Source: Clostridia bacterium (lineage in GTDB: Bacteria > Bacillota > Clostridia > UMGS1883). Taken from it: a DNA stretch of 64,000 bases. The translations under genes were made by a program, and so were the position numbers. Below the pieces are notes generated by a model. The model was not told the DNA's origin, did no database searches, and worked only from the letters and a program-made list of their open reading frames with translations. How positions within the stretch are numbered: the first letter of the stretch is position 1; the number at the start of each line of letters is the position of its first letter. Location of the stretch: contig JAFSGW010000017.1 in assembly GCA_017440585.1 (NCBI GenBank), forward strand, positions 17,401 to 81,400, read 5' to 3'. Positions 9,502-25,252 of the stretch are shown piece after piece.

Positions 9502-10326
9502 ATGAGCTATAGAATTGTTATGGACAGTGCAGGAGAAGTGAATGAAAGGCTTTCTGGCAAGGTTGTAAGCGTGCCTTTGACAGTAAGCATAAACGGCAAG
9601 GATTATATTGCCGACGAGAATATGGACATAGACACCTTCCGCAAGGAGGTAAGAGAGTCGAAGGAGCCACCAAGAAGCTCCTGTCCTTCACCTGATGCCT
9701 TCTGTAATGCTATCGGTGACTGCGACAGAGTGTATATAATTACTATCACAGCGGCACTTTCCGGCTCCTATAACAGTGCAAGACTGGGTCTTCAGATGCA
9801 TCTTGGTGAAAACCCGGGAAAAAAGGGCTATGTTTTCAACTCTCTCAATGCTTCCGGCGGTGAAGCACTTGTGGCGGAAAAAATTATTGAGCTTGAGGAA
9901 AAGGGTCTTGAGTTTGAAGAAATTGTAAAAATCACAGAGGAATATATTCCCACAATTACAACAAACGTTGTGCTCGAGGATTTGAGCGTGCTTTACAAAA
10001 ACGGCAGACTTTCAAAGGTTGCATACGTTGCGACAAGCATTATTGACCTTGTGGCAGTCCTTGGTCTCCGTGAAGGTGAGCTTGTAAAAATTGCTCAGGC
10101 AAGGGGCGTTAAGAGGGCTATAGCAAAGCTCACGGAAACAGCCATTGCCGATATTAAGGAAAGAGGCATTAAAAAGATTACCATTACACACTCTGCGGCA
10201 CCTGAAAGGGCAGAGGCTTTAAAGGCGGCACTTGAAAAAGAAGTAGAGGCAGATATAGTAATTGTGCCTACAGGCGGTCTCATAAGCATGTATGCAGGAG
10301 AAAAGGGTCTTGTAATAAGTTATTAA
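9502..10326 (+). CDS. DegV family fatty-acid-binding protein (FakB-like)
   Basis: MSYRIVMDSAGEV..., YIITITAALSGSYNSARLG, 274 aa, typical DegV/EDD fold family. Confidence 0.8.
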   Translation: MSYRIVMDSAGEVNERLSGKVVSVPLTVSINGKDYIADENMDIDTFRKEVRESKEPPRSSCPSPDAFCNAIGDCDRVYIITITAALSGSYNSARLGLQMHLGENPGKKGYVFNSLNASGGEALVAEKIIELEEKGLEFEEIVKITEEYIPTITTNVVLEDLSVLYKNGRLSKVAYVATSIIDLVAVLGLREGELVKIAQARGVKRAIAKLTETAIADIKERGIKKITITHSAAPERAEALKAALEKEVEADIVIVPTGGLISMYAGEKGLVISY

Positions 10327-10331
10327 TATCG

Positions 10332-10368
10332 AAAGCGACATCTTACTGAAAAGATGTCGCTTTTATTT
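10332..10368 (+). terminator. Rho-independent terminator after degV
   Basis: AAGCGACATCTT / AAGATGTCGCTT stem followed by TTTTATTTG. Confidence 0.8.
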
Positions 10369-10369
10369 G

Positions 10370-10398
10370 TTTACACAAAGAGAAATTCCTTCTATAAT
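10370..10398 (+). promoter_or_regulatory. Sigma-A type promoter (TTTACA-17-TATAAT) for the CAZyme island
   Basis: Near-consensus hexamers with 17-nt spacer about 25 nt upstream of ATG 10424. Confidence 0.5.
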
Positions 10399-10423
10399 AG
10401 TATTAAAGAATGGGGGAGTTTTT

Positions 10424-13400
10424 ATGAAAAAGTTTATATCGATTGTTCTGGCGGGAATAATGTGTACAGGAGCTATACCTGCAATAGCAATGGAGGCTGA
10501 TAATGTGACGGAAAATATTATTTATGTATCCCAAACAGGCTTGGATACAAACGAAGGCAGCTTTGAAAAACCGGTGCAGTCACTTAATGTTGCCCGTGAC
10601 ATGGCAAGAGAAATGGAAGGCGAGGTGGAGATTGTTCTTCGTGGCGGCGAATATGTTCTCGAAGAAACTCTCACACTTGATAAAAGAGACAGCAACGTAA
10701 AGTGGAAAAGCTATGAGGGCGAGATCGCCATTGTTACAAGTGCCCGTGATATAACAGACTGGACAATTCATGATGAAGAGAAAAACATTTATAAAGCAGA
10801 GCTTGAGGAAGGCTTTATGACACGTCAGGTGTATTTTAACGGCGAAAAGGCGAAGAGAAGCAGAAGCATTTCCTACAAGGGTGGCTACAGCAACCTTGAC
10901 CGCACCTGCGAATTGGGCTTAAGGTCGCGTAACAGCAGAGAATTTTATTTTTACCGTAATGAGGTAGATAACTGGAACAATTTTGAGGATGTTGAAATAC
11001 ATCTTCTTTCCGCATGGGTTGACAATGTTTTCAGACTTAAAAAGTATGATGGCGAAAAGAACTTTTCGGAAACCACTGTTGATAACGGAGGAAGTGAGGG
11101 TGTAGTTTCTGCTGCTGCGGTAAAAATTCAGGATATTGAAGCAGAAAGAATTTTTAACCGTGCTCACCCCGACCTTACGGGTACAACACGCGGTTATGCA
11201 TCCAGAAGCTATTATTACTTTGAAAACGCCTACGAGTTTATTGATGAGGACCTGGAGTGGTATATTGATAAGCATACAGATACCATTTATTTCAAGGCTC
11301 CTTCGGGCGTTGATATGAACAAGGCAAGAATTACTGTGCCTACATTGGAAACCCTTATCAATATTGAAGGCGACAAGGAAAACAAAGCCGAAAATATTAC
11401 CTTTGAAAACATTACATTTGAATGCACAACATGGACACTCCCCGGTGAGGAAGGTCTTGTTGGGGCTCAGGCGTGCCAGTACACATTAACTACAACATTG
11501 GACAATAAAACAACAGTGTATCATATTCCTGCGGGCTTTTATGCCACATATGCGGATAACCTCCTTGTGAAAGGCTGTACCTTCCGCAAAATGGGTGCGA
11601 TGGGGCTTGACTATTATGAAGGTGTGACAAACAGCAATATTTTTGAAAACGAGGTTTATGATGTTGCGGCAACGGGTATTTCAATTGCCAAGTTCGTGCA
11701 GGACGAAAAAACGGAGTATCACACTGCTTATAACCCCTCAGATAAAAGAGAAATCACAAAAAACATTAATGTTATAAATAATAAGGTGCATCATATAGGC
11801 ACAGAATACGAGGGGGCTGTAGGTATTGCGGCAGGCTATCCCGAGCATATTATAATTGCACATAACGACATTCATAATGTGCCTTATTCTGGTATTTCCG
11901 TAGGCTTTGGCTGGTCTGATGCAGATAATGCCATGAAGCACAATATGATTTTTGCAAACAAGCTTGTTTCTTTGGGTGAGGTGCTTTGTGACTTTGGCGG
12001 TATTTACACTCTTTCAAAACAGCCCGGCAGTGTTTGTGCACGTAACTTTATGGATAATATAAAGAGAAAGGCATGGTTTGACTATGCCTATGCGGCAATG
12101 TATTTTGACGAGCAGACAGAAGGATATGTAATTGAAGACAACCTTTTGGTGAACATTGGCTCCGATGCATGGGGCGGTGGAATTAATTTCAATGGCTGTA
12201 AGAGCAAAAATACCCTCAGGACAAATTATGTAAATAAACCGATTGATACAAACGAAACAACACTTGCAGTATATAATGAGGCAGGTGTGCAATCTGTTGA
12301 AAGTGATGTGCTTGTAAAGGAAGCAGAGGAATACCTTGATAAAATAATAAACCCCGAGGAGCCCTATGACGAAGCAGATTATATGGTGCACAGAGAAATT
12401 ATGCCCATAAAGGCTACTGCAACAAGGGCAGATAGCGGAAGTGATGCATCCTATGCAATTGATAGAAACGGAAACACATCCTATAAGCTTTCCGGGCAGA
12501 CAGCAGAGAGTGCAAAAAATGAATATCTCTTAATTGAGCTTGACGGTAAGAGTGTTGTTGACAGCATTGTGATTGATAAAGAATATCATGCAGGCGGTAT
12601 TAATGAATATGACTACTGGGCAGACTGGTGTATGGCGGTAGGCTGTGAGCTTCAGGGCTCTGTGGATGGTACAACGTGGAAAACAATAGGTGTTATGAAT
12701 ACCTGGCCCGACGGTGTGACAGAGCCTGAAAGTGAGGTGTTTAACCTTGCAGAGCCTATGGCGTATAAGTACATAAGATACATCAGAACAACCGTTAAAA
12801 AGAGCGGTGATTACGGCTACTGGCTCTGGAGCTCTTCTGACGGAGGAAACCGTTTGAACATAAAAGAAATTAGCTTCTTTGGTTCAGTACCCTCCACAAG
12901 GCTTGAACCGATTAACGTAACTGCAACGGGCTGTGACGAAGACAGCGACCCTTCCTATGCAACAGACGGAAACCATAAAACCGTGTATACCCTTTCAAAT
13001 CAGACAGCTGACAGCATGAAGGATGAGTACCTTCTTCTTGAGCTTGACGGAAAGAGAACAGTTGACAAGATAATTATCCGCAGACAGTTTAATGCGGCAA
13101 ACGGCACGGTGAATAACTACTGGTATGACTGGGGTCTTGCGGTAGGCTGTGAGCTTCAGGGTTCCTTTGACGGTGAACAATGGGAGACAATTGCAGTTAT
13201 GAACACCTGGCCTGACGGAAAGGGAGAAACAACCAAGGAGGTATTTGAGCTTCAAAAGCCTGCTAAGTATAAATATGTGAGATACATAAGAACAAAGTAC
13301 AAAACAGGCAGTGATTACCTTGTATGGCTCTGGAAAAATACCGATGGAGGAAACAGACTGAATGTTAAGGAAATTGAGCTTTATTCAGCCCAGAGACCGG

Positions 13401-13663
13401 GAATTTCCTCTGTTAATGAGGAAGGAAAAGAAATTAAGGTAGAGCTTGAAAATGTTTTTGAAGCAAAGGGTGTGCTCTGTGTAGCCTTCTATAATGAGGA
13501 TGAGCTTTTGAATGCGGAAACAAAAATGGTTGAAGAAGGAAAGACAGAGTATTACTTTAAAAAGGCAGATGGGGCAAAGAAAATCAAGGCAATGATAATT
13601 GACCTTGAAAAGGCGGAGCCCCTTTGTGAGTGTAAGATAGCGAGCGAGGAGGAAATAAAATGA
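10424..13663 (+). CDS. Secreted right-handed beta-helix protein (probable glycoside hydrolase/lyase) with two F5/8 type C (discoidin, CBM32-like) modules
   Basis: Signal peptide MKKFISIVLAGIMCTGAIPAIA; parallel beta-helix repeat signatures (NNKVHHIGTEYEGAVGIAAG, IIIAHNDIHNVPYSGISVGFGWS); two about 160-aa modules sharing ...ATDGN...EYLL(I/L)ELDG...AVGCELQGS...YIRYIRT...GGNRLN(I/V)KEI; start chosen at the internal M with RBS GGGGGAG. Confidence 0.7.
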   Translation: MKKFISIVLAGIMCTGAIPAIAMEADNVTENIIYVSQTGLDTNEGSFEKPVQSLNVARDMAREMEGEVEIVLRGGEYVLEETLTLDKRDSNVKWKSYEGEIAIVTSARDITDWTIHDEEKNIYKAELEEGFMTRQVYFNGEKAKRSRSISYKGGYSNLDRTCELGLRSRNSREFYFYRNEVDNWNNFEDVEIHLLSAWVDNVFRLKKYDGEKNFSETTVDNGGSEGVVSAAAVKIQDIEAERIFNRAHPDLTGTTRGYASRSYYYFENAYEFIDEDLEWYIDKHTDTIYFKAPSGVDMNKARITVPTLETLINIEGDKENKAENITFENITFECTTWTLPGEEGLVGAQACQYTLTTTLDNKTTVYHIPAGFYATYADNLLVKGCTFRKMGAMGLDYYEGVTNSNIFENEVYDVAATGISIAKFVQDEKTEYHTAYNPSDKREITKNINVINNKVHHIGTEYEGAVGIAAGYPEHIIIAHNDIHNVPYSGISVGFGWSDADNAMKHNMIFANKLVSLGEVLCDFGGIYTLSKQPGSVCARNFMDNIKRKAWFDYAYAAMYFDEQTEGYVIEDNLLVNIGSDAWGGGINFNGCKSKNTLRTNYVNKPIDTNETTLAVYNEAGVQSVESDVLVKEAEEYLDKIINPEEPYDEADYMVHREIMPIKATATRADSGSDASYAIDRNGNTSYKLSGQTAESAKNEYLLIELDGKSVVDSIVIDKEYHAGGINEYDYWADWCMAVGCELQGSVDGTTWKTIGVMNTWPDGVTEPESEVFNLAEPMAYKYIRYIRTTVKKSGDYGYWLWSSSDGGNRLNIKEISFFGSVPSTRLEPINVTATGCDEDSDPSYATDGNHKTVYTLSNQTADSMKDEYLLLELDGKRTVDKIIIRRQFNAANGTVNNYWYDWGLAVGCELQGSFDGEQWETIAVMNTWPDGKGETTKEVFELQKPAKYKYVRYIRTKYKTGSDYLVWLWKNTDGGNRLNVKEIELYSAQRPGISSVNEEGKEIKVELENVFEAKGVLCVAFYNEDELLNAETKMVEEGKTEYYFKKADGAKKIKAMIIDLEKAEPLCECKIASEEEIK

Positions 13664-16600
13664 AACGAATAGTTTCTGTTATACTGGCAGGAATGCTGAC
13701 ACTTTCGTGCATTCCAATGATTGCAAACGGAGCTGGTACTGACATGAAGCCTTATAAAAAAGGTAATTTTGTAAATAGCTATAATCCGATTATAAGCCGT
13801 ATGGTAAACAGCGGGACCCGTGCATGGCGTGACGGTATGATTTCGGGCAACGGCAGGACGGGTTATGTTACAAGCGGTGAGCCTTATTCCGATGCATTTA
13901 TATTTCAGAATATATTCTTTAACTTTCCCACAAATCAGCCCAGATACACACCCACGGAGCTGACGGGACAGCTTGAAGAAGCAAGAGAGAATGTCTTTAA
14001 CCTTAACGATGACTGGAAAATAAAGGATCAGTATGGTAACACGAGAAAGAGAACCTTCTTTTATTCCTACCATCCGGGGGCACAGCTCCGCCTTACAAGC
14101 AGCTATAAGGACACGGAGAAGGACTATATCCGCTGGACAAACTACGAAACTGCGGAAACGGGCGTTAAGTTTACAGATAAGTACGGCACATGGGAAAGGG
14201 TGAGTTTTACATCACGCCCCGATGATGTGACAGTTACAAAAATGGAAAAGTCCTCGGAAGGAGAGCTTGTCAACATGACCGTTTCCATAGACGATATTGA
14301 AACTATGGCAAAGGGCTGGGACGGTTTTTCTGAAATAAGCCGTATGAAGTACAAAAAAATCGTACCCGATGACTGTTCATATATTGCTCAGTTTGCAAAA
14401 TACCCTGCATACAGCGGAAGTGAGCTGTACGACGGCGGTTATGCCACTGTTACGTACATTATTGCAGAGGGTAAGGATGCAAAGAAAACAAGGGTTGAAA
14501 CTGCAAACAATGAGTCCTATTTCACGGGCAAAAACTATGCGGTAAAAATTGAAAACGCTGAAGCGGTTTACCTTATTACTGCGGTGGACAGAACCTTTAA
14601 TATGACAGGTCAGTCCACGGGCGATGTTATGACAAAATTTGTGAATATGACAAGTTACCCCTTCCTTGACGAAATGGTTGAAAAGCTTGAGGACGTTAAG
14701 GAAAAGTACACGGAAGATGGAAGCTTCAGCTACGAAAAAATACTTGAGCCTTCTGCAAAAATACAAAGTGAGGCTATTAATAATGTGAGCTTTGAGCTTG
14801 CAGGTGATGAGGAGTATGCATCCTACGATAATAATGCACTCATAGGTGTACAACGGGGTACCAGTGGCAGAATAAACCACGAATTTATGCGCCGTGCATA
14901 TGACCAGGCACGCTACGCCCAGGTATGTTGCGGCGGCAGTGCTGCACCAAGACTTTACGGCATGTGGTGCGGTGAATGGAACCCCGGCTGGAGAAGTATA
15001 TATACCCTTGATGCAAACGTTAATTTGCAGACAAGTGCCATGAACACAGGTAACCTTGATGGTAACTTCCAGTACGGCTACATTACATATTTCCTTCGTC
15101 ACAGCCCCGACTTTATGGAAAATGCACGTATGGCATACGGAATGCATGATGCCATTCAGCTCAGTGTTAATACCGATGCTGACAGAGCAATGCACGTTGA
15201 GTACGATAATGCATACCCATTCCAGTACTGGAATGCAGGTGCAAGCTGGTGCTTGCTTCCCATTTTTGAATACTGGCAGTGCTACGGAAACCGGCAGATA
15301 GCAATTAACGAGGATATGCGATTTGAAAACCTTCAGCACGTTTTGGGCGTGAATGACGGTGGACTTACTGATGAGGAATATAATGAAATAAAAGAGCGGG
15401 GCTATCTTGACCTTGAGAAGGACATTTTGTTGCCTCTTCTTACAAAGCAGGCAAACTACTGGGAACAGATTGTAACGCCCAGATATTATACCGACGTTAA
15501 CGGCAAAGCCTGCCACGATGAAAATAAAACAGAATTACTTCCCGGCGAAAAGTATATAATTATACCTACATATTCCCCCGAAAACCATCCTATCGGTTAC
15601 TACAGCACACTTACTGCAAATGCCACCATGGACATTGCGGCAGCACGTGACGGTCTTGATATGGTATGTGCACTTGAAGAAGCTGTAGGAAGAGAGGGCT
15701 GGGAGGACCAGGTTGAAAGATGGCAGAGCCTTAAGGAAAAAATTGCAGACTACAAAACAGATACCGACGGTGCACTCCGTGAGTGGGCAATGGAGGAATA
15801 TCAGGAGAATAACAACCACCGTCACTTAAGCCATCTTTACGTTGCATGGCCAGGATATGATACACAGAATAATCCTGAGTTGGCAAAAGCGGCGAACAAG
15901 GCGCTTGACAACCGCCGTAAATATAATACGGGCGATGCAACAGCGGGTCACGGCTGGATGCATCAGGCTCTTGTTGAAGCACGCTTGAAGCGTGGCGACG
16001 GTATGGTAAGCTCGCTCTTAAAGATGATGAACGGCTCTGCTTATTATTCATCCATGATGACGGACCATGATACAAACAGACGAAATGATACTTATTGTAC
16101 AGATACAGCCTTTGGTACACTTGCTGCAATTAATGAAGCTATGGCATTTTCCTATACGGGACAGATTGAAATACTGCCTGCACTGCCAAAGGAATGGACA
16201 AAGGGCAGTGTTAAGGGGCTTATGGCAAGATGCCGTGTGGAAATTGCCGATATTACATGGGATATTGAAGAACGTGAAGCCTCGGCAACACTTGTTTCCT
16301 CTGAGGATGACAATGTAGTAAAGCTTTCCTCCGGTGAAGCATGGAAAAAGGCAGCAATAAACGGCGAAGAGCTTGAAATTATGCATGGTGAAAGCGGAAA
16401 CTATGTTGAACTTACACTTTCAAAGGATGAAAGCGTGACAGTTGAATTTACCCTTTCAGATGCACCCGACGGCACATACACAATTACAGAGGACGGACAA
16501 TATATGCAGATTTCTGCATATGAAAACGGAAGTGCTCTTACATTTGGTGCTCTTAATGATAAGGCATACTGGGATGTAACAAATACAGATGACGGTTATA

Positions 16601-18219
16601 TCCTTATAAGAAGCACAGCAACAGGTAAATACGTTACAGATGAAAACGGCGTGCTTGTACAGACGAACTATACGGGTGAAGACAACCAGAAGTGGCTTCC
16701 TGAAGATTTCTCAATGACAAGGCTGACAGAATACAGAGAGGTTAACGTTACCCCCGACAGAGTTATTATTACAGCGGATGGTGAAGAGATTGAAAGCCTT
16801 ACAATGGAGGAAGGGGAAACGGTTACTCTTTCTGCAAAAGTTGAGCCTGAGGATGCTTCGGCAACAATTATATGGGCATCGGACAGCATAGGAAGCGGTG
16901 TTGTATTAACAGGTGGCAAGCTTACTGCATATGCACCGGGTAATTTCAATGTTACTGCAACAACTACCACTGGCTATGTGTGCTCACTTCCCGTAAAGGT
17001 TGAGGGAAATGCACGTGATGTCGTTAAGGCAGAGGTAAGTGGCTTTACAAGTGCAGATAACGGCTATAATGGAGATTGGGTACCACAGAATGTGCTTGAC
17101 GGTAAAACGGGTTCGGCATATGCATCAAAGGACGATGGTGCAGTGAAGTATATTGAATTTGAGCTTGAAAAAGAAACTGCAGTTGAGCTTATGTATGTGA
17201 CAGGCAGATTTACGGGTGCTGACGGTGAAGGTGCTTATGCAAAGAGAATTAACGGAGCGAAGATGTATGCTTCCGACAAGCCCTTCGGCAAGAATGTTGC
17301 GAATGCAGTTCTTGTAGGCGAAGTAAGCGGTGTTACCGCAACAAGTGCATATGTTCCTGCCCGTGTCGAAATCAACACAAGAGGCGAAAAGTATAAGTAT
17401 TATACCCTTTATTTTGACACTGTGAACAACGGAAGCAATATTTCACTTGCACTTGATGATATTGCCTTCTATACGGGCGGAAAAAGCTTTGTAGAGAAGC
17501 TTAACCCAATTGTTACTGCAAAGGGAGGAGCAAATCCTTCATATGCAACAGACGGCAATGTGGCTACTATGTTCAGTATTGAAACACAGACAAATTACCC
17601 TAATGAATACATTCAGTTTGAATTGAACGGCATTGCTCCCGTGAATAAAATTGTTGTAAAGAAGGGACTGCTTCCCTTAGGTGGAGTAACCAACTACTGG
17701 GGAGACCATGCATATGCATCGGGCTGTGTGCTTGAAGGAAGCCTTGACGGCATTGAGTGGGAAACCATTTACACGATGACTAAACGCCCCGACGGTACAG
17801 ACAATCAGAGTGAAATTGTTATAACCCCCGAAAACCCCGTGGCTTACAGGTATATCCGCTATATCCGAAAGGAAAGCAACAGTTATATCGGTTGGGCTTC
17901 AAACGGCGGAAACAAGCTTATACTTGCGGATATTGAGTTTTATACAATAAGTGCAGACGTTGAAACAGAGGTTGTAAAAAAGGAGAATAAAGCCGTTACA
18001 ATAAGAGCTAAAAGTAACACAGACGGACAGTTCAGCCTTATTACGGCAGTTTTCGATACTGAAGAAAGACTTGTTGAGGTTGTGACAACACCTTTAAGCT
18101 TAATTGCAGAAACCCCGAAGGAGGTTACTGTTCCCGTAACAAAGGAAGGTAATATAAAGGTTTTTACCTGGGGGAGTAATATGCTCCCCGTAGCAGATAA
18201 AATAAATGTGGAAAAATAG
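13660..18219 (+). CDS. Secreted GH95-family glycoside hydrolase (alpha-L-fucosidase/alpha-L-galactosidase type) with Big_2, ricin-type beta-trefoil and discoidin (CBM32-like) modules
   Basis: Signal peptide MKRIVSVILAGMLTLSCIPMIANGAG; GH95 motifs MWCGEWNPGW...NVNLQTSAMN, HRHLSHLYVAWPG, GHGWMHQALVEARLKRGDG, LPALPKEWTKGSVKGLMARCRVEIADITW; QKW-containing ricin-like module; BIG2-like VTLSAKVEPEDASATIIWASDS; discoidin module with YIRYIR. Confidence 0.8.
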   Translation: MKRIVSVILAGMLTLSCIPMIANGAGTDMKPYKKGNFVNSYNPIISRMVNSGTRAWRDGMISGNGRTGYVTSGEPYSDAFIFQNIFFNFPTNQPRYTPTELTGQLEEARENVFNLNDDWKIKDQYGNTRKRTFFYSYHPGAQLRLTSSYKDTEKDYIRWTNYETAETGVKFTDKYGTWERVSFTSRPDDVTVTKMEKSSEGELVNMTVSIDDIETMAKGWDGFSEISRMKYKKIVPDDCSYIAQFAKYPAYSGSELYDGGYATVTYIIAEGKDAKKTRVETANNESYFTGKNYAVKIENAEAVYLITAVDRTFNMTGQSTGDVMTKFVNMTSYPFLDEMVEKLEDVKEKYTEDGSFSYEKILEPSAKIQSEAINNVSFELAGDEEYASYDNNALIGVQRGTSGRINHEFMRRAYDQARYAQVCCGGSAAPRLYGMWCGEWNPGWRSIYTLDANVNLQTSAMNTGNLDGNFQYGYITYFLRHSPDFMENARMAYGMHDAIQLSVNTDADRAMHVEYDNAYPFQYWNAGASWCLLPIFEYWQCYGNRQIAINEDMRFENLQHVLGVNDGGLTDEEYNEIKERGYLDLEKDILLPLLTKQANYWEQIVTPRYYTDVNGKACHDENKTELLPGEKYIIIPTYSPENHPIGYYSTLTANATMDIAAARDGLDMVCALEEAVGREGWEDQVERWQSLKEKIADYKTDTDGALREWAMEEYQENNNHRHLSHLYVAWPGYDTQNNPELAKAANKALDNRRKYNTGDATAGHGWMHQALVEARLKRGDGMVSSLLKMMNGSAYYSSMMTDHDTNRRNDTYCTDTAFGTLAAINEAMAFSYTGQIEILPALPKEWTKGSVKGLMARCRVEIADITWDIEEREASATLVSSEDDNVVKLSSGEAWKKAAINGEELEIMHGESGNYVELTLSKDESVTVEFTLSDAPDGTYTITEDGQYMQISAYENGSALTFGALNDKAYWDVTNTDDGYILIRSTATGKYVTDENGVLVQTNYTGEDNQKWLPEDFSMTRLTEYREVNVTPDRVIITADGEEIESLTMEEGETVTLSAKVEPEDASATIIWASDSIGSGVVLTGGKLTAYAPGNFNVTATTTTGYVCSLPVKVEGNARDVVKAEVSGFTSADNGYNGDWVPQNVLDGKTGSAYASKDDGAVKYIEFELEKETAVELMYVTGRFTGADGEGAYAKRINGAKMYASDKPFGKNVANAVLVGEVSGVTATSAYVPARVEINTRGEKYKYYTLYFDTVNNGSNISLALDDIAFYTGGKSFVEKLNPIVTAKGGANPSYATDGNVATMFSIETQTNYPNEYIQFELNGIAPVNKIVVKKGLLPLGGVTNYWGDHAYASGCVLEGSLDGIEWETIYTMTKRPDGTDNQSEIVITPENPVAYRYIRYIRKESNSYIGWASNGGNKLILADIEFYTISADVETEVVKKENKAVTIRAKSNTDGQFSLITAVFDTEERLVEVVTTPLSLIAETPKEVTVPVTKEGNIKVFTWGSNMLPVADKINVEK

Positions 18220-18254
18220 CAATATGTGAGGTATAATGTATCTGAGGTGGTTTT

Positions 18255-19043
18255 ATGCTCAGAATTTCAGAGGCTAACATACGTTTTCAGCTTGATAATT
18301 TAAAAATAAAGGTTCTTGGAATAAGCTATGGTGTGTTTTACAAGCCTTTCCCGAAGCACAAACACGGAAACCGTTTTTATGAAGCACATCTTACCTGCGG
18401 AGGAAGCGGTATTCTTATTGCTGACGGAAAGGAGTACCCCTTAAAGGCAGGCACGCTTTATATGACGGGACCTCTGGTTGAGCATGAGCAGATTACAGAT
18501 GTTGAAGACCCCATGGACGAATACTGCATTCAGTTTGAGATTACGGAAAAGCCCGGTGTAAGGCAGGGCAAAACCGCAACCTTCCTGAAGGATACTGTGT
18601 TCTGGATTGGTGAGGATACACAGAATACAAAAAGGCTTTTTGAAATGCTTACCGAGGAGTGCGAAAACAAGAAGATAGGCTACATACAAAGCGTGATAAA
18701 CCTTTCCTGTCAGCTTATGGTGTGCTTTGCACGTAATTATGCAGGCAGTGACCAGGTTGGTGAGTATACGGCAATTACACCCGATGATAAACGTATGATA
18801 ATAACCGATGAAAGCTTTTTGTACAATTACGCCACTATAACACTGCCGCAACTGAGCAGCAGGCTTAACCTGAGCCCCAGGCAGACACAGCGCTTCCTTA
18901 AAAAGGCATACGGTAAGAGCTTTATAGAACTCAGAAGCGAAAGAAGAAAGGAAAAGGCGAAGGAATTTATCAAAAGTGGGAAAAGTGTGATTGAAGCGGC
19001 AACTATGGTCGGGTATACAAATGAAAAAAGCTTAAAGCTTTGA
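18255..19043 (+). CDS. AraC family transcriptional regulator (cupin sensor plus HTH)
   Basis: N-terminal cupin-like region, C-terminal AraC HTH (QTQRFLKKAYGKSFIELRSERRKEKAKEFIKSGKSVIEAATMVGYTNEKS). Confidence 0.75.
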   Translation: MLRISEANIRFQLDNLKIKVLGISYGVFYKPFPKHKHGNRFYEAHLTCGGSGILIADGKEYPLKAGTLYMTGPLVEHEQITDVEDPMDEYCIQFEITEKPGVRQGKTATFLKDTVFWIGEDTQNTKRLFEMLTEECENKKIGYIQSVINLSCQLMVCFARNYAGSDQVGEYTAITPDDKRMIITDESFLYNYATITLPQLSSRLNLSPRQTQRFLKKAYGKSFIELRSERRKEKAKEFIKSGKSVIEAATMVGYTNEKSLKL

Positions 19044-19065
19044 TAGCAAAAATGTCTATTGACTA

Positions 19066-19113
19066 ACACCCCATACTATGATAGAATTACTTATCATGGT
19101 GTGGGGTTGTTTT
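19066..19113 (+). terminator. Imperfect hairpin plus T-run after araC; the stem contains the GGGG Shine-Dalgarno of the next gene
   Basis: ACCCCATACTATGATAG...TTATCATGGTGTGGGGT stem about 16 bp with wobbles, followed by TGTTTTT and ATG 19115. Confidence 0.5.
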
Positions 19114-19114
19114 T

Positions 19115-19564
19115 ATGAAGAAAACTGAAAAATTTGATACAGTAATGCCGCTTATTAAAGAGCGGTTTGAAAAGGGAGAAAGCTTCGTATTTAAGCCCAA
19201 TGGAGTAAGCATGTTGCCATTTATAAAAGGTGGAGAAACATCGGTTGAAATTGAAAAATACGAAGGCGGAGCCGGGATGTTTGACATTGTGTTTTATGTG
19301 CGTGAGGATGGAAAACATGTAATGCACAGAATTGTAAAAATGTACAAAATTGCAAAAATGTACACAAATTCCTTCGGAGTGTGCGGTGATAACCAGTGGT
19401 GGATTGAAGAGGTTAAGGAAGAACAGATTTTTGCCATTGCAAGAAAGGTCTCGGGAAGAAGGCTTCCCGGCAGTTGGTTATACCTTCACACCTTGCCCTT
19501 AAGGCGGTTTGTAATTCATGTTATACAGTATTTAAAAAAGCATATGAGAGGAGAAAAGAAATGA
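19115..19564 (+). CDS. Standalone S24-like (LexA C-terminal-type Ser/Lys) peptidase domain protein
   Basis: GVSMLP (Ser motif), GGETSVEIEK, DIVFYVREDGKHVMHRIVKM (Lys motif); no HTH and no TM; stop overlaps the GH43 start (ATGA). Confidence 0.5.
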   Translation: MKKTEKFDTVMPLIKERFEKGESFVFKPNGVSMLPFIKGGETSVEIEKYEGGAGMFDIVFYVREDGKHVMHRIVKMYKIAKMYTNSFGVCGDNQWWIEEVKEEQIFAIARKVSGRRLPGSWLYLHTLPLRRFVIHVIQYLKKHMRGEKK

Positions 19565-21228
19565 AAAGAGTTTTAGCTTTTGTTATGGCATTTATGATGC
19601 TTTTTGCAATAAGTGTAAGTGCCAACAACCCCATCGTTAAAGAGGACGGTAACGGTAACCGTATTTATGCAGGTGACCCTGCGGCAATTGTTGTTGATGA
19701 TACTGTGTACCTTTTCTGCGGACACGACACATCTACAACAAATTCTTACTACATGCCCGAGTGGCTTTGCTATTCCTCAAAGGACATGATTAACTGGAAG
19801 TATGAAGGCGTGCCCATGAGAGCAAGTGACTTTTCCTGGGGCAGTGCTGCTGATGCCTGGGCAGGTGAGGTTGAATATTATAAGGGCAAGTATTATTTCT
19901 TTATGTGCAAAAACTCCACAGGTATTTCTGTAGGCGTGAGCGACAATATAACCGGGCCTTATAAGGATCACCTGAACGGCGTGAAGCTTGTTCAGCCCGG
20001 CTGGACACGTGGTAAGGTGGGTTGGGACGACATTGACCCTACCGTATGGATTGAGAACGATGAAAAGGGCGTTGAGCACCGCTATATAGCATGGGGCAAC
20101 TCAAACCTTTATATCGCTGAGCTTACTGAGGACATGAAGAGCCTTGTTGACCTTAACGGCGATGGTGCGGTTAACGGTGGCGATATTACTGAAATACATA
20201 TTCAGGACATGCCCAATACAACAGCCTTTACAGAGGCTCCCTGGTTTTATAAAAGAGGGGATTTGTACTATATTTTCTTTGCTAACAGCTGGCACGAAGA
20301 GCTTTCCTATGCCACAAGCAAAAGTGTAACTGGTCCCTATACATACGGCGGAAAGATTATGGAGGCAGGTGCATCCAGTAACACAAACCATCCTTCCGTA
20401 ATTGATTTTAAGGGCAAGACATATATTTTCTATCACACAGGTGCAATGGAAAACGGCAGTGGCTACAGAAGAAGTATTTGCGTTGAAGAGCTTAAGTTCA
20501 ATGATGACGGTTCGATAGACCTCTTCTACGAGAGCAGTGTTGGTCTTGACGGAACAAAGGTTTTTATTTCACCCGTGAGCGACCCTTCAAAGAAAATTTA
20601 TCACGGCTATTTTTCAAACACAATCGAGCCTACTGCATACCCTGCAGGAAGTCTTGTTTTCTGTGATGACTTTACTGTAAATAAAGCTGACTTTGAATGG
20701 GAAATTATTCCCGGCAGAGGAAATGAGGAATATGTTTCCATTCAGGCGGTAAACAAGATGGGCTATTTTATCACAAACTATAATTCCCACGTTAAGGTTC
20801 TGCACGATAACGATGCAACAAGAGAGACTGCACAGAGCATGACCTTTATTGAACGTGATGGCTTGTGCGGTGAAGGTGTGAGCTATGAGAGCATGACGGA
20901 AAAGGGCATGTTTCTTACGGTTGTGGGCAACAGAGTGCAGCTCACCTCAGGTCACGATAAGGAAGCTTCAAGCTTTATTATAACAGAGGTAAATAACCCC
21001 GATAAGCTTACAGTAAGTGCAGACGGGGACGGTATACACCTTAAGGGCACATATACCGGTGATAAGAGAAACGTGCTTTTGTATGTTAAAAATGAAGAAG
21101 GCACAATTGTTGATTTTAAGATTGTAAGAATAAATGAGTCGAGAATGCTTGACTACACCTTCGAGCCTGAAAAGGGCGGAGTATATACTGTTGTATTCGG
21201 CACTTTCAGTGAAAATGTTGAGTTTTAA
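19561..21228 (+). CDS. Secreted GH43 family glycoside hydrolase (arabinofuranosidase/xylosidase type) with C-terminal AbfB/CBM42-like arabinose-binding domain
   Basis: Signal peptide MKRVLAFVMAFMMLFAISVSA; GH43 signatures (IYAGDPAAIVVDDTVYLFCGHD, EAPWFYKRGDLYYIFFA); C-terminal region with beta-trefoil-like repeats (YFITNYNSHVKVL, GMFLTVVGNRVQL). Confidence 0.8.
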   Translation: MKRVLAFVMAFMMLFAISVSANNPIVKEDGNGNRIYAGDPAAIVVDDTVYLFCGHDTSTTNSYYMPEWLCYSSKDMINWKYEGVPMRASDFSWGSAADAWAGEVEYYKGKYYFFMCKNSTGISVGVSDNITGPYKDHLNGVKLVQPGWTRGKVGWDDIDPTVWIENDEKGVEHRYIAWGNSNLYIAELTEDMKSLVDLNGDGAVNGGDITEIHIQDMPNTTAFTEAPWFYKRGDLYYIFFANSWHEELSYATSKSVTGPYTYGGKIMEAGASSNTNHPSVIDFKGKTYIFYHTGAMENGSGYRRSICVEELKFNDDGSIDLFYESSVGLDGTKVFISPVSDPSKKIYHGYFSNTIEPTAYPAGSLVFCDDFTVNKADFEWEIIPGRGNEEYVSIQAVNKMGYFITNYNSHVKVLHDNDATRETAQSMTFIERDGLCGEGVSYESMTEKGMFLTVVGNRVQLTSGHDKEASSFIITEVNNPDKLTVSADGDGIHLKGTYTGDKRNVLLYVKNEEGTIVDFKIVRINESRMLDYTFEPEKGGVYTVVFGTFSENVEF

Positions 21229-21240
21229 GGAGGGGATAAC

Positions 21241-23229
21241 ATGAAAAAATATATTGGTTTAATTTTAGCTTTAGTATGTGTTTTGTGCTTATCTCTTCAT
21301 GCGATAGCAGCAGAAACACTTTACTACACCTTTGACGGCAGTGACAGCCTTACATCTGTTACAAACACCCTTAAAGCAGGTGCAAATGCGGCAATCGGAG
21401 ACGGAGTTCTTAAGCTTAACGGAACTTACGGCTTAAAGCTCGGCTCAGTGGGAAGCAGCTTTTCTGTTTCTGCAATGGTGAAAATAGATTCAAACGGCGG
21501 AACGGACACTATTTTCTTCAAGGATATGGACAATAAGGGCGATAAATGGACAGGCGTTTTGTCCAATGCTAAGAAACCCTCCTTCTGGACACATGGCACA
21601 AGCCACAGATGGGAAACCGTTGCCTCGGGAACAGAAAATTTAGGCGAATGGAGCCATATTGCATATGTTGAAAATAATAGCACGGGCTCACTTTATGTGA
21701 ATGGTGAGCTTGTTGGAAGCGGAAGCGTTGAAAGTGGTGCAGGCACCCTTTACCTTGGTGCAACCTACTGGAGTGCCGATGCACCCTCGGGTATGGTTGA
21801 CAATGTAAAGCTTTTTAATAACGCCCTTACCGCAGGCGAGGTTATGTCGGAATACGAAAGCAATATTGACTTTGAAAGTGCTTTAAAGCTTCCCCGGGAT
21901 GTTATTTCCGATATTGAGCTTGTAAAGAAGGTCGGAACAAAGGTTGTTACCTGGGCAAGCAGTAACGAAGCTGTCATTGATAGAGAAGGTAAGGTAACAC
22001 GTGCCGATGAGGACGTTACTGTTACACTTACTGCCACAGTTGACGGTGAGGTTGTGGGTGAGTTTGAAGTAACGGTGCTTAAAAAGCCCGGTAAGGCAAA
22101 TGATGATGTAATTCTTTCCTATGTGTTTGACTTGGAAAATGATGGCGATATTATCCACGATATGTCCGGTAACGGAAACCACGGTGCGGCATATAACGGT
22201 CTTGAAATTACAAAGGATGGTGCACACTTTGACGGTAGCGACGACTATGTGAAATTAGTTGACGGTATTCTTTACGGGCATGATGAAATTACAATATGCA
22301 CAACCTTTAAGCCCACCGCAGCACAGAAGCATGTGTTCTTATACGGCTTTGGCAACGGTACAGAAACAGGCTATATGTTCCTTAACCCCTCAAGACCTAC
22401 AACAAACACCCTTCGTTTTGCAATGACGAAAACAAATGCAGGGAACGAAAGCTCACTTGTTTCTCTGCCCGGCATCCGTATTAACGAAGAGGTGAACGTG
22501 ACTGTAGTCATAGTGGACAAATATGCCTCTATGTATGTTGATGGTGAATTGGTTATGGATGGCGACCTGGGTATGACAGTAAGTGCCCTTGGCGAAACTA
22601 AGGAAAACTACATTGGTAAATCTCTTTATGAGGCTGATCCTTATTTTGCAGGTTACATGAAGGAGTTTACTGTGTATAACTATGCTATGCGCGAAAGCAG
22701 GATAAAGGAGCTTTACGGAAAGAGCGTTGAATATGCTGAAAGTGATGAAGTGAAAGAGTATATACAGAGCGTTTCCTTTGAGAACGGAATAGAGGTTACG
22801 GTTGATACTTTCAACCGCAATGATGTAAAAATTGGTGTTGTTGTGCTTGATGAGAATTATGAAGTTATTGAATTCAGCGTAAATGATGCCGAAGACGAAA
22901 TTGCAGTTACAAAGGATGGTACAGTTTGTGTATTTGCCTTTGATGAAGAAACAAACACACCCGGAAGCATATTTGTGAAGGGTGAGGGTGAAGGCTTTAC
23001 CTACGAGCATACCCCCGGAGTGGTTAAAATTACAGCAGAAAGCACCCTTAAAGGCGGTATTGCCATAGTTGCAGGCTATGACACCACAGGAGCATTAACA
23101 GGTGTTGTGTGCAAGGCTGTTGACCTTACAGAAGGTGTTGGTGAAGCATTTGAAGGCGATTTTGAAAACGCCGTTATGTTCAAAATGTTCTACTGGGGCA
23201 ACCTTGTTGCCATGATTCCTATGGAATAA
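21241..23229 (+). CDS. Secreted protein with two concanavalin A-like/LamG (Laminin_G_3) lectin domains
   Basis: Signal peptide MKKYIGLILALVCVLCLSLHAIA; LamG-type motifs LYLGATYWSADAPSGMVDNVKLFNNALTAGEV and NYIGKSLYEADPYFAGYMKEFTVYNYAMRESRIKELYG. Confidence 0.7.
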   Translation: MKKYIGLILALVCVLCLSLHAIAAETLYYTFDGSDSLTSVTNTLKAGANAAIGDGVLKLNGTYGLKLGSVGSSFSVSAMVKIDSNGGTDTIFFKDMDNKGDKWTGVLSNAKKPSFWTHGTSHRWETVASGTENLGEWSHIAYVENNSTGSLYVNGELVGSGSVESGAGTLYLGATYWSADAPSGMVDNVKLFNNALTAGEVMSEYESNIDFESALKLPRDVISDIELVKKVGTKVVTWASSNEAVIDREGKVTRADEDVTVTLTATVDGEVVGEFEVTVLKKPGKANDDVILSYVFDLENDGDIIHDMSGNGNHGAAYNGLEITKDGAHFDGSDDYVKLVDGILYGHDEITICTTFKPTAAQKHVFLYGFGNGTETGYMFLNPSRPTTNTLRFAMTKTNAGNESSLVSLPGIRINEEVNVTVVIVDKYASMYVDGELVMDGDLGMTVSALGETKENYIGKSLYEADPYFAGYMKEFTVYNYAMRESRIKELYGKSVEYAESDEVKEYIQSVSFENGIEVTVDTFNRNDVKIGVVVLDENYEVIEFSVNDAEDEIAVTKDGTVCVFAFDEETNTPGSIFVKGEGEGFTYEHTPGVVKITAESTLKGGIAIVAGYDTTGALTGVVCKAVDLTEGVGEAFEGDFENAVMFKMFYWGNLVAMIPME

Positions 23230-23243
23230 AGAGGGTGTAATAA

Positions 23244-23660
23244 TTGATACTTTTGGTTTTATTGGGTATAGGTTTTATAATTTTCGGACTTTTCTATTTT
23301 GACGATTCCGGTCTTTTCGGCTTTGGTCGCAGAAAATGGTACGAAGCAGAGCTTATAGACGAGGTTGAAGATGAGGTGTACGACAACATAGGCGGTACGA
23401 AAACAAGATTTTTCAAGGCTTATGAGTTTGAAGAGGATGGCGAAAAGAAGGTTGTACGCTCACAGAGACCTCTTAAGAGAATTACCAACAAGGTTGGCAG
23501 AAAAACAAAAATCCTTGTGGACTCAAAAAGCCGTAAGGCAATGGATAAGCAGGATGTAATACTGTATCGCACCATTGCAGCAATTTTCGTTGCAGTCGGT
23601 ATTTTACTAATTGCAGGTGTAGTGTATATTAAGCTTAACGTAAAGGGAGCTGTTCTCTGA
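23244..23660 (+). CDS. Small membrane protein with N- and C-terminal TM helices (DUF3592-like)
   Basis: MILLVLLGIGFIIFGLFYF... and AIFVAVGILLIAGVVYI; charged soluble core; 1-nt stop/start overlap with the sirtuin gene. Confidence 0.45.
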   Translation: MILLVLLGIGFIIFGLFYFDDSGLFGFGRRKWYEAELIDEVEDEVYDNIGGTKTRFFKAYEFEEDGEKKVVRSQRPLKRITNKVGRKTKILVDSKSRKAMDKQDVILYRTIAAIFVAVGILLIAGVVYIKLNVKGAVL

Positions 23661-24376
23661 TGGACAAAATCCGGAAGCTTCAGGACATGATAAATAAAAG
23701 TGAACGTATTGTGTTTTTTGGCGGTGCAGGCGTTTCAACAGAATCGGGCATTCCCGATTTCAGAAGTGTTGACGGACTGTATAATCAAAAATACGAATTT
23801 CCCCCTGAGGAAATTATAAGCCACAGCTTTTATAAAAGTAACCCTGAGGAATTTTACCGTTTTTATAAGGACAGAATGATATTTCCTTTGGCTGTGCCCA
23901 ACAAAGCACACGAGTACCTTGCAAGGCTTGAAAAAACGGGGAAATTAAAGGCTGTTATCACACAGAATATTGATTCTCTGCACACGATGGCAGGCTGTGA
24001 AAATGTGCTTGAGCTTCACGGCTCGGTAATGCGGAATTACTGTGAAAAATGCGGTAAGTTCTATGACCTTGACTATGTTATGGCAACAGAGGGAGTGCCC
24101 ATGTGTGAATGTGGTGGAAGGGTAAAGCCCGATGTGGTTCTGTATGAGGAACAGCTTGACGGCAAAATACTCAAAGATGCGGTAAATGCGATAGAAAGTG
24201 CCGATATGCTTATAATAGGAGGCACAAGCCTGATTGTTTACCCTGCTGCAGGACTTATAAGGCATTTTTTCGGAGACCATCTTGTGATTATAAATAAAAG
24301 CGAAACCACTGCTGATAACTGGGCTGACCTGGTTATACACGAACCAATTGGCGAGGTTTTCGGACAGTTAAAATAA
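23660..24376 (+). CDS. NAD-dependent protein deacylase (Sir2 family, class-U-like sirtuin)
   Basis: FFGGAGVSTESGIPDFRS, catalytic His in LELHGS, Zn ribbon CEKCGK...CECGG; 238 aa. Confidence 0.85.
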   Translation: MDKIRKLQDMINKSERIVFFGGAGVSTESGIPDFRSVDGLYNQKYEFPPEEIISHSFYKSNPEEFYRFYKDRMIFPLAVPNKAHEYLARLEKTGKLKAVITQNIDSLHTMAGCENVLELHGSVMRNYCEKCGKFYDLDYVMATEGVPMCECGGRVKPDVVLYEEQLDGKILKDAVNAIESADMLIIGGTSLIVYPAAGLIRHFFGDHLVIINKSETTADNWADLVIHEPIGEVFGQLK

Positions 24377-24387
24377 GGAGAAAAAAT

Positions 24388-24717
24388 ATGGCAAAGTATG
24401 AGACCACCTTAACGGGCGATTTTCATGAGATATTGCACAGAATAGAGGATGGAATTATTCACGGAAGTGCATCGGCTACACTGGAGGACTGGAGCAATTT
24501 TGAGCTTGATGGTGTAAGGTGCAGTGTAAGGGTTTTTGAACGCTACAGCTATACGGGAGGAAACCGGGTAAGTATGAATGTGACATTGTTTGGAACGGGG
24601 AATACAGTTCACATTTCGGCAATTACTTCAGGCGGAAGCCAGGCTATGTTTTTCAAAATCAATACATTCGGTGAAGAAGCATTTTTAGAGAAAATAATAG
24701 AAATACTTGAAAGATAA
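24388..24717 (+). CDS. Hypothetical protein (109 aa), third gene of the sirtuin operon
   Basis: AGGAG RBS 8 nt upstream; no recognisable motif; followed by a strong terminator. Confidence 0.4.
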   Translation: MAKYETTLTGDFHEILHRIEDGIIHGSASATLEDWSNFELDGVRCSVRVFERYSYTGGNRVSMNVTLFGTGNTVHISAITSGGSQAMFFKINTFGEEAFLEKIIEILER

Positions 24718-24721
24718 TGAG

Positions 24722-24757
24722 TAAAAGCGTGAGAATTTCAAAATTCTCACGCTTTTT
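24722..24757 (+). terminator. Rho-independent terminator
   Basis: AAAAGCGTGAGAATTTTC / GAAAATTCTCACGCTTTTT long perfect stem. Confidence 0.85.
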
Positions 24758-24760
24758 AGT

Positions 24761-24789
24761 TGAAATTTGCAAATTTTAGTAGTATAATA
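24761..24789 (+). promoter_or_regulatory. Sigma-A type promoter (TTGAAA-17-TATAAT) for the Rrf2-cysK-nifSU-nadA operon
   Basis: Near-consensus hexamers about 30 nt upstream of the Rrf2 start. Confidence 0.5.
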
Positions 24790-24820
24790 TAATAGCGATA
24801 ATTTGGAGGGAGGGGTAAAA

Positions 24821-25252
24821 ATGAAAATAACATCCCGTGGAAGATATGCACTAAAGGTTATGATTGATATTGCAGAGCAGAAAAGCGATGATTATATAAA
24901 GCTTAATGATATTGCACAGCGTCAGAGTATTTCGGAAAAATACCTTGAAAGCATTATTGCATCCCTCACAAAGGCAGGTTTACTTATCGGTGTAAGAGGT
25001 AAGGGCGGTGGCTACAAGCTTAGCAAAAAGCCCGAGGAATATACCGTCGGAAGCATCCTTAAAATTACAGAGGGCTCACTTACACCCGTGAGCTGTATGG
25101 ACTGTAAGCCTAACACCTGCGTTTCTGTTGAAAGCTGTAAAACACTTCCTTTATGGGAGGGGCTCGACAAGGTGATTGACAATTATCTTGAAAGCGTTAC
25201 CGTGGCAGATCTGGCTTTTGGCAAAAATAAGGGCGATAATTACGTTATTTAG
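24821..25252 (+). CDS. Rrf2 family transcriptional regulator (CymR/IscR-like)
   Basis: MKITSRGRYALKVMIDIAEQ...; HTH plus conserved Cys-containing C-terminal region; start at internal ATG with RBS GGAGGGAGGGG. Confidence 0.8.
   Translation: MKITSRGRYALKVMIDIAEQKSDDYIKLNDIAQRQSISEKYLESIIASLTKAGLLIGVRGKGGGYKLSKKPEEYTVGSILKITEGSLTPVSCMDCKPNTCVSVESCKTLPLWEGLDKVIDNYLESVTVADLAFGKNKGDNYVI

Follow-up and report, generated by a model that had tools for sequence, protein, structure and literature searches.

What does a small peptidase gene without a membrane anchor do between the gene for an AraC-like regulator and that for a secreted glycoside hydrolase, and from which promoter is it read? The question is raised by a 64-kb stretch of DNA from a Clostridia bacterium (hereafter the window), in which a protein of 149 amino acids (aa), here called S26L, is encoded directly upstream of a GH43 gene. 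The initial annotation of this locus described a free S24-type peptidase domain, whose expression might depend on read-through from araC and which was proposed as a possible regulatory or processing partner of AraC or GH43. Our analysis gives a different picture. The description that fits S26L best is that of an anchorless clan-SF peptidase from a large uncharacterised family, with the Ser/His pattern of the endoplasmic reticulum (ER)-type signal peptidases. By sequence comparison and analogy it is probably, with some reserve, a catalytically active endopeptidase of S26B descent that uses Ser32 and His71 (with Asp92), is cytoplasmic or sits at the inner membrane face, and most likely trims the leader or pro-segment of a dedicated partner. 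The S26L operon is predicted to have its own promoter, embedded in the terminator hairpin of the gene upstream.

S26L is a conserved gene with a clan SF fold

The open reading frame (ORF) at 19115-19564 on the + strand, as first called, is a real, functional and conserved gene. The ratio of nonsynonymous to synonymous substitution rates (dN/dS) was 0.10–0.20 against eight orthologues, which shows purifying selection, and the ORF was intact in all orthologues. On these grounds a pseudogene, which the initial annotation had named as a possibility, was rejected. The stop codon TGA (19562-19564) shares bases with the GH43 ATG at 19561 (ATGA, 19561-19564), an overlap that had been noticed before and that supports translational coupling to GH43. 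On the other side, the stop codon of the araC-like gene (19041-19043) is followed by a 71-nucleotide (nt) spacer up to S26L, which holds a long inverted repeat and the T-run TTGTTTTT.

The 52 close homologues have about 143 aa and come mostly from metagenome-assembled genomes of Clostridia from animal guts. A precomputed Pfam domain was found in none of the 52, and some carry the NCBI name 'S24/S26 family peptidase', so that the gene itself is ordinary. We estimated the size of the family by a profile search over 1.84 billion cluster representatives (clusters at 50% identity). The hits, nearly all of them standalone proteins of 140–170 aa, numbered 14,324 at E ≤ 1e-3 and 4,713 at E ≤ 1e-10. 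Pfam has no model for the S26L family, which comprises more than 14,000 clusters at 50% identity.

The AlphaFold2 model of S26L (pLDDT 87) has the beta-barrel fold of the clan SF peptidases (S24/S26; LexA/signal-peptidase), with tabulated structural match values of 9.3 for LexA, 8.5 for Escherichia coli signal peptidase I, 8.3 for lambda CI, 7.3 for SEC11A and 10.2 for Streptococcus pyogenes SipA. A search of the PDB with the single S26L sequence gave noise only. The standalone clan SF fold implied in the earlier S24 assignment was upheld in this respect.

Two absences stated in the initial annotation were also confirmed. Pfam gave nothing for the window protein at E ≤ 1, so that there is no helix-turn-helix (HTH) domain. 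The Kyte-Doolittle 19-residue mean (KD19) peaks at only 0.81, in a basic amphipathic C-terminal helix, and we therefore find no transmembrane (TM) segment; the same measure gives 2.15 for the signal peptide of GH43, 2.67 for that of the laminin-G protein encoded next (LamG) and 2.88 for a small two-TM (2-TM) protein of the operon. The initial annotation had allowed that the domain might belong to the signal peptidase S26 family with a missed TM segment. Half of this proved right, because the protein is S26-like as described below, but no TM segment was missed: there truly is none.

Active-site residues match the pattern of ER-type signal peptidases

The family profile aligns with Gram-positive signal peptidases, namely Bacillus anthracis signal peptidase I (SPase I) and Staphylococcus aureus SpsB (4nv4 and SpsB; E values of 1e-3 and 2e-3). 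In this alignment, Ser32 coincides with the catalytic Ser, the pair His71-Arg72 takes the position of the catalytic Lys-Arg, and G91-D92-N93 matches the GDN of box E. We counted residue conservation in 196 diverse family members: G30, S32, M33, P35, R72, G91 and D92 were conserved in 100%, H71 and E98 in 99%, and D57 in 97%. The serine motif GVSMLP noted before is present in S26L, with its G30, S32, M33 and P35 invariant. The lysine motif HRIVKM fared otherwise as a catalytic element, since its Lys (K75) was conserved in just 52%, and the residue aligned with the catalytic Lys is His71, which was kept in 195 of the 196 members.

In ER- and archaeal-type signal peptidases, His stands in place of the bacterial Lys, and Ser, His and Asp are used (PMC2913515); in SipW, the catalytic residues are Ser47, His87 and Asp106 (PMC8767453). 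The SipW model puts residue 32 of the window protein at model position 47, which is the number of the catalytic Ser of SipW. Ser32, His71 and Asp92 of S26L thus appear, from the alignments, to match the catalytic pattern of S26B.

Hidden Markov model (HMM) tests were made on 30 relatives and the window protein. The model of archaeal signal peptidase I (TIGR02228) matched 30 of the 30 relatives (best E value 6e-9), that of SipW (NF046067) matched 24, and that of SodX (TIGR02754) matched eight. No match was obtained with the LexA or UmuD models of NCBIfam, either for the relatives or for the window protein. PF00717, which had been proposed as a check of the S24 assignment, did not match the window protein at E ≤ 1 and gave sub-threshold matches to nine relatives (best E value 4e-4), whereas PF10502 matched one relative (E value 0.079). 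These results suggest that the closest relatives of the S26L family are the ER/archaeal-type (S26B) signal peptidases, e.g., SipW and Sec11. Compared with Bacillus subtilis SipW and yeast, human and archaeal Sec11, S26L shares the conserved Ser, His and Asp (at least 99%, by alignment), but it lacks the membrane anchor by which the catalytic domain comes to lie outside the cytoplasm, scores far under the family HMM cutoffs, is shorter (about 143–160 aa), ends in a basic amphipathic helix, and has PqqD, ScmC-like and nucleotidyltransferase genes as typical neighbours instead of secretory substrates. The bacterial P-type SPase I (S26A) is characterised by a Ser-Lys dyad and PF10502; S26L has neither, with His at the Lys position.

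These data bear directly on the explanation given in the initial annotation, according to which S26L would be a free Ser-Lys domain of the S24 type (LexA, UmuD, CI) that cleaves itself upon a signal, regulates or processes AraC or GH43, and is expressed by read-through of the araC terminator. S26L does share the clan SF fold with LexA, UmuD and lambda CI (MEROPS S24), but it has His and not Lys as the presumed general base, no DNA-binding domain, no PF00717 match and no self-cleavage site. Neither Ala-Gly nor Cys-Gly occurs in residues 1–29 of S26L, and the alignment shows no conserved cleavage loop or candidate site before Ser32. His at the Lys position in 195 of 196 members means that the chemistry is not the Ser-Lys chemistry of LexA, and this substitution already largely refutes the explanation. 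The HMM results point the same way, as does the genomic context: most orthologous loci are without araC, and a conserved promoter lies between araC and S26L (see below). We consider the S24 explanation very improbable; the fold survives from it, and the LexA-type chemistry with self-cleavage does not.

S26L also contains the internal 18-nt repeat reported before, as a tandem duplication at 19321-19370 (Table 1). It adds a net 6 aa in a variable, indel-prone beta-hairpin loop right after His71-Arg72. The 6-aa insertion occurs in two of the 196 family members, the window protein and a homologue 97% identical to it (P0001), and is a gap in the other 194; it looks like a tolerated change specific to this lineage.

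A promoter is predicted within the terminator hairpin upstream of S26L

The initial annotation had placed a long hairpin with a T-run upstream of S26L and its GGGG Shine-Dalgarno (SD) sequence in the 3' arm, and this description was borne out. The 86-nt region folds at -30.2 kcal/mol (z = -6.8), none of 200 shuffled sequences was as stable, and the hairpin with its T-run was listed by the terminator scan. The segment has the parts of an intrinsic terminator, that is, a stable GC-containing stem-loop with a U-run directly after it, downstream of a stop codon. It also has those of a sigma-A extended -10 promoter (TTGACT, 17 nt, TGaTAGAAT).

Nine other loci (L001, L005, L007, L010, L080, L083, L084, L085, L086) have the same module directly ahead of the S26L start, and they were aligned with the window. 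In this alignment of 10 loci, column identity was 82%, the -35 hexamer and the TATG.TA.AAT columns were invariant, and the stem cells were paired in 96.5%. Four pairs, in 10 cells, had both sides changed (compensatory changes), and these fell in the outer half of the stem. None of the shuffles equalled the observed pairing or covariation score, and controls slid along the alignment paired in 31–52%. Because these loci have diverged nearly to saturation at synonymous sites (dS from 1.1 to above 4), the conservation of this intergenic module reflects selection. The gene upstream of the module is degV in L001, L005, L007, L080, L083 and L085, and AraC-like in the window, L084, L086 and L009. The TGA inside the TTGACT of the -35 hexamer doubles as the araC stop codon in L084 and L086.

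Transcription is predicted to start about 7 nt past the -10 element, at about 19093-19096, the beginning of the 3' arm. RNA from about 19093 folds at -6.5 kcal/mol (z +0.5); once both arms are included, the value is -28.3 kcal/mol and the GGGG is paired. Transcripts of araC in the window, or of degV in the relatives, would hold both arms and terminate at the hairpin, and those that read through would have the SD paired in the hairpin and be poorly translated. Transcripts from the embedded promoter would begin within the 3' arm, form no hairpin and leave the SD free. The most economical reading is that upstream transcripts end at the hairpin and that the S26L operon uses its own strong promoter with a free SD. 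With a predicted start inside the 3' arm, the operon would be insulated from upstream transcription, not dependent on it. Expression by read-through from araC, as first proposed, is contradicted by the conserved promoter in the hairpin and by the presence of the same module after degV where araC is absent.

Two points weigh against this reading: both the start site and the termination are predictions, and an inverted repeat that overlaps a -10 element might also be a protein operator. If so, the repeat would be mainly a DNA operator for a dimeric repressor over the -10 element instead of an RNA terminator, although the two roles are compatible. The palindrome ACTATGATA...TATCATAGT is indeed centred on the -10 region, and genes for regulators of the TetR and Rrf2 families lie nearby. 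Against an operator, however, the stem is 17 base pairs (bp) long, ends in a T-run and carries compensatory changes in its outer half, and the module always stands right after the stop codon of a + strand gene. Among the stem cells that are not Watson-Crick pairs, 11 are G.U on the + strand against three A.C, which favours RNA pairing over a DNA operator. We regard the operator as unlikely to be the main role of the repeat and prefer the terminator with an embedded promoter.

The back-to-back arrangement of a terminator and a sigma-A extended -10 promoter has the same parts (a GC-rich stem, a T-run and TTGACT-17-TGnTAnAAT), and generic promoters of this consensus are common in metagenomes. In the S26L module, by contrast, the elements physically overlap, with the -10 element in the 5' arm and loop and the predicted start and the SD in the 3' arm, and the stem co-varies over at least 10 species. 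A metagenome scan with the promoter/hairpin pattern found 22 generic Firmicutes promoters, none of them followed by S26L, and no more copies of the module. A riboswitch or other known cis-regulatory RNA was rejected for the hairpin, as no Rfam match was found in 18000-25000, and a repeated element was rejected because the hairpin is unique in the window.

Variants of this layout were seen elsewhere. In L009 (5752-6000), the module is intact right after araC, but about 170 nt, including a second hairpin (aacgtgaaagtttcacgtt), precede the S26L start, and the 3' arm is not used as the SD. In two unrelated loci from JGI metagenome contigs, L105 (8097-8170) and L108, the promoter spacer (TCCCCTTTTTATG) is complementary to the downstream SD region (ATAAAAATAAAGGGAGA), which suggests that hairpin-embedded promoters may be a more general design in these Firmicutes.

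S26L and the GH43 gene are separable in orthologous loci

S26L is the promoter-proximal gene of an operon that continues with GH43, LamG, the 2-TM protein, SIR2 and DUF6054, with intergenic gaps of -4 to 14 nt from S26L to DUF6054 (Table 1). The order S26L-GH43-LamG-2TM-SIR2 recurs in orthologous loci at 53–69% S26L identity. DUF6054 is present in L001, L002, L003 and L005 and absent in L080, L083, L084 and L085.

Table 1. Features of the S26L locus, with positions in the window. The promoter, hairpin and catalytic assignments are predictions.
Feature	Position	Strand	Description
AraC-like regulator	18255-19043	+	262 aa; Pfam HTH_18, AraC_binding; part of the optional GH141-GH95-AraC block
-35 hexamer TTGACT	19059-19064	+	promoter scan 10 of 12 for the promoter; invariant in 10 aligned loci
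RNA hairpin, 17 bp	19067-19108	+	5' arm 19067-19083, loop 19084-19091, 3' arm 19092-19108
Extended -10 TGaTAGAAT	19079-19087	+	spacer 17 nt; TG extension flagged by the scan; in hairpin 5' arm and loop
Shine-Dalgarno GGGG (GAGG in relatives)	19103-19106	+	within 3' arm, 8 nt ahead of ATG
T-run TTGTTTTT	19107-19114	+	after the stem
S26L	19115-19564	+	149 aa; peptidase gene, no membrane anchor, S26B-like
Proposed catalytic Ser32	19208-19210		
Tandem duplication, 18 nt	19321-19370	+	Tandem Repeats Finder: 2.7 copies, 87% match; encodes IVKMYK/IAKMYT
Proposed catalytic His71	19325-19327		
Proposed catalytic Asp92	19388-19390		
Further proposed residues Arg72, Glu98			
GH43 + AbfB, arabinofuranosidase-like	19561-21228	+	signal peptide; Pfam; hydropathy of residues 4-22 = 2.15
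LamG, secreted Laminin_G_3/aBig_2 protein	21241-23229	+	Pfam, hydropathy
2-TM protein, small	23244-23660	+	138 aa; two hydrophobic segments; no Pfam family
SIR2 (sirtuin), canonical	23660-24376	+	overlaps the 2-TM gene; Pfam SIR2 2e-48
DUF6054	24388-24717	+	final tightly spaced operon gene; Pfam

Other loci have a different complement of genes. In L081 and L082 (44% S26L identity), S26L, the 2-TM gene and SIR2 overlap one another without GH43 and LamG. L087 has S26L, GH43, LamG and the 2-TM gene without SIR2, and L089 has GH43, LamG, the 2-TM gene and SIR2 after a similar promoter without S26L. The 2-TM protein, whose gene comes right after S26L in L081, is 43% identical between the window and L081, and SIR2 is 73% identical. 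Across the loci seen, the 2-TM gene is the steadiest neighbour of S26L, above GH43, LamG and SIR2. Its product in the window has terminal TM segments around a charged domain of about 80 aa and is confined to a narrow clade of Clostridia, with 36 homologues at 50% identity or more.

A regulatory or processing partnership of S26L with GH43 or AraC, as suggested in the initial annotation, is at odds with these loci, since S26L occurs without GH43 in L081 and GH43 without S26L in L089. Among 69 genome loci carrying a gene of the S26L family, on which all neighbour counts are based, GH43 follows S26L in this clade only. Because the two genes are separable in both directions and their pairing is confined to one clade, the pairing of the peptidase with a carbohydrate-active enzyme looks like a clade-specific product of gene order and does not count as evidence for a functional partnership.

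A related possibility is that S26L is a dedicated SipW-like signal peptidase for the co-transcribed, secreted GH43 and LamG proteins, in the manner of sipW in the tapA-sipW-tasA operon. Several observations are in its favour: SipW and the archaeal signal peptidase are the nearest sequence models, the Ser/His/Asp pattern fits, translational coupling ties the gene to two proteins whose signal peptides are of the classical type, with the ends VSA|N and AIA|A, and SipW is itself operon-encoded and substrate-specific (PMC8767453). S26L is, however, without an N- or C-terminal TM segment and without a signal peptide (KD19 maximum 0.81), and its active site would therefore have no access to the outer side of the membrane, where signal peptide cleavage takes place. 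The GH43-LamG operon without S26L (L089), S26L without GH43 and LamG (L081) and the lack of a secreted neighbour for most family members also speak against this idea, which we judge distinctly improbable.

The gene upstream of the module varies as well. L084, L086 and L009 carry a block of GH141, GH95 and AraC that is lacking in L001, L005, L007, L080, L083 and L085, where degV is upstream. In the window, the block spans 8.7 kb (10367-19043) between degV and the hairpin/promoter module and contains a GH141-like beta-helix protein with F5/8 type C domains, a GH95 protein of 1519 aa and the AraC-like regulator, with its own terminator and promoter just past the degV stop (10326-10424). The AraC-like orthologues (window 18255-19043; L084 6141-6947; L086 6142-6948; L009 4928-5752) all four end in '...VGY..E.SLK', and the HTH_18 match spans 61 of 80 profile positions, so that they seem to be without the last helix of the second HTH.

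Some single loci had peculiarities of their own. In L081 (about 2012-2064; JGI Ga0376465_0014197), gene calling had started the S26L homologue P0042 at an internal ATG; 13 upstream in-frame codons (DTKFKISELRPF...) fit the N-terminus of the family and begin at an ATA 5 nt past a GGAGGG SD, which is possibly a non-canonical start or a sequencing error. In L089 (1-320; Logan SRR33013290), the operon without S26L sits after a permease gene, a terminator and the promoter TTGACA-17-TGaTACAAT, which around its -10 element is similar to the 5' arm in the window module. L085 (12109-15848) has two tandem Laminin_G_3/aBig_2 genes (662 and 584 aa), compared with one in the window. A defence system, suggested by the neighbouring SIR2, was rejected: PADLOC gave no match for S26L, the 2-TM protein or DUF6054 and only marginal ones for the sirtuin.

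Most family members neighbour PqqD, ScmC-like or nucleotidyltransferase genes

In the wider family, PqqD neighbours S26L in 20 of the 69 loci and is directly upstream in 19 of those 20. A nucleotidyltransferase of the NTP_transf_5 family (PF14907) is found in 22 loci and a ScmC-like protein of about 250–285 aa in 13, and proteins of the ATP-binding cassette (ABC) type and capsule genes are further recurrent neighbours. Most family members are without a secreted neighbour. The large genes beside S26L relatives are those for Endonuclease_1, PrmA, a major facilitator superfamily transporter, BrkB and DUF3798, and capsule genes. A cassette of the ScmC-like protein, PqqD and S26L recurs (L006 940-2420; L014, L065, L066, L071, L074), often with an ABC protein or the PF14907 nucleotidyltransferase; neither a cyclase nor a radical-SAM gene could be recognised in it.

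Lasso-peptide clusters of rumen Firmicutes are accompanied by PqqD/B1, HPr-kinase-like and nucleotidyltransferase genes (PMC7533575), and most of the distant S26L relatives adjoin the same gene types (PqqD, ScmC-like, PF14907). In the loci checked, however, neither a lasso cyclase nor a B2 protease adjoins S26L, and the window has no such partners. A role of S26L as a substitute for the B2 protease in lasso-peptide clusters was therefore rejected as stated. In the literature searched, we found nothing relevant on ScmC, PF27840 or PF14907 and no papers on S26-type peptidases with recognition elements (RREs) of ribosomally synthesised and post-translationally modified peptides; the PqqD/ScmC/NTP_transf_5/S26L cassette appears undescribed there.

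Proposed function of S26L

In the mechanism that we propose, Ser32 of the GxSMxP motif would be the nucleophile, and His71 of the invariant HR motif would act as the general base where LexA and bacterial SPase I have a Lys. A supporting part would fall to Asp92, in the invariant GDN, and to Glu98 six residues on. A site-specific cut would free the leader or pro-segment of one dedicated partner, a protein or a peptide. With no membrane anchor, S26L would most likely be cytoplasmic or on the inner face of the membrane.

SodX, the maturation protease of nickel superoxide dismutase (NiSOD), is a small dedicated S26-type peptidase that takes the N-terminal leader off one specific protein. The role of a leader peptidase is suggested for S26L by analogy with SodX on NiSOD and with SipW on TasA, and the PqqD (peptide-binding) neighbours of most family members agree with it. 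The likeness to SodX has its bounds: its model matched the eight relatives weakly and below threshold, no sodN was seen among S26L neighbours (those in the window being AraC, GH43, LamG, the 2-TM protein and SIR2), and SodX-type enzymes are nearer to the bacterial P-type. In the window, the 2-TM protein, as the most consistent neighbour, would be the first substrate candidate.

Several observations count against an active leader peptidase. No member of the family has been characterised. All matches to signal-peptidase HMMs were under the curated cutoffs, the window protein scoring 13.5 bits against a cutoff of 51.85 for TIGR02228 and 12.8 against 190 for NF046067. HMMs built from the PqqD, ScmC-like and NTP_transf_5 neighbours found nothing in the 64-kb window, so that the analogy with leader peptidases is borrowed from paralogues of 30–40% identity. 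Finally, the best structural match is SipA, a non-catalytic homologue. This match raises the possibility that S26L is itself a peptidase-fold protein without activity, that is, a chaperone or adaptor of the SipA kind, which would bind a partner such as the 2-TM protein and not cleave it. The S. pyogenes SipA/LepA pilus-assembly homologue (PDB 4n31) is, however, membrane-anchored and, like SipA-type proteins in general, has lost the catalytic residues, whereas S32, H71, R72, D92 and E98 of S26L are kept at 99% or more in the 196 diverse members, which is the pattern of an active enzyme. An adaptor seems quite unlikely to us, and we continue to favour an active endopeptidase.

A wider proposal, speculative and in our view rather doubtful, would make the whole family of more than 14,000 clusters cytoplasmic Ser/His peptidases that descend from signal peptidases of the ER/archaeal lineage. 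Its members in most Clostridia would be the leader peptidases of an undescribed peptide-modification system with PqqD (RRE), ScmC-like and nucleotidyltransferase proteins; in the clade of the window, these partners would have been lost and a new role taken up with the 2-TM protein and the sirtuin. If this were true, a signal-peptidase-type active site would be at work on the cytoplasmic side of the membrane.

Significance

The overlap of terminator, promoter and SD is a neat arrangement, but it is made from ordinary parts. As suggested by covariation and prediction, one 42-nt hairpin would stop upstream transcription, silence translation of read-through transcripts, and carry the promoter and the ribosome-binding site of the next operon. 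Operon annotation can profit from such an overlap, which can also serve as a compact insulator part.

The S26L family joins the Ser/His chemistry of ER-type signal peptidases with the lack of a membrane anchor, and its usual neighbours suggest peptide maturation, which makes it a reasonable target for biochemical work. Were a substrate found, it would give the signal-peptidase active site a newly defined use, and a new peptide-modification pathway of gut and rumen Clostridia could come to light.

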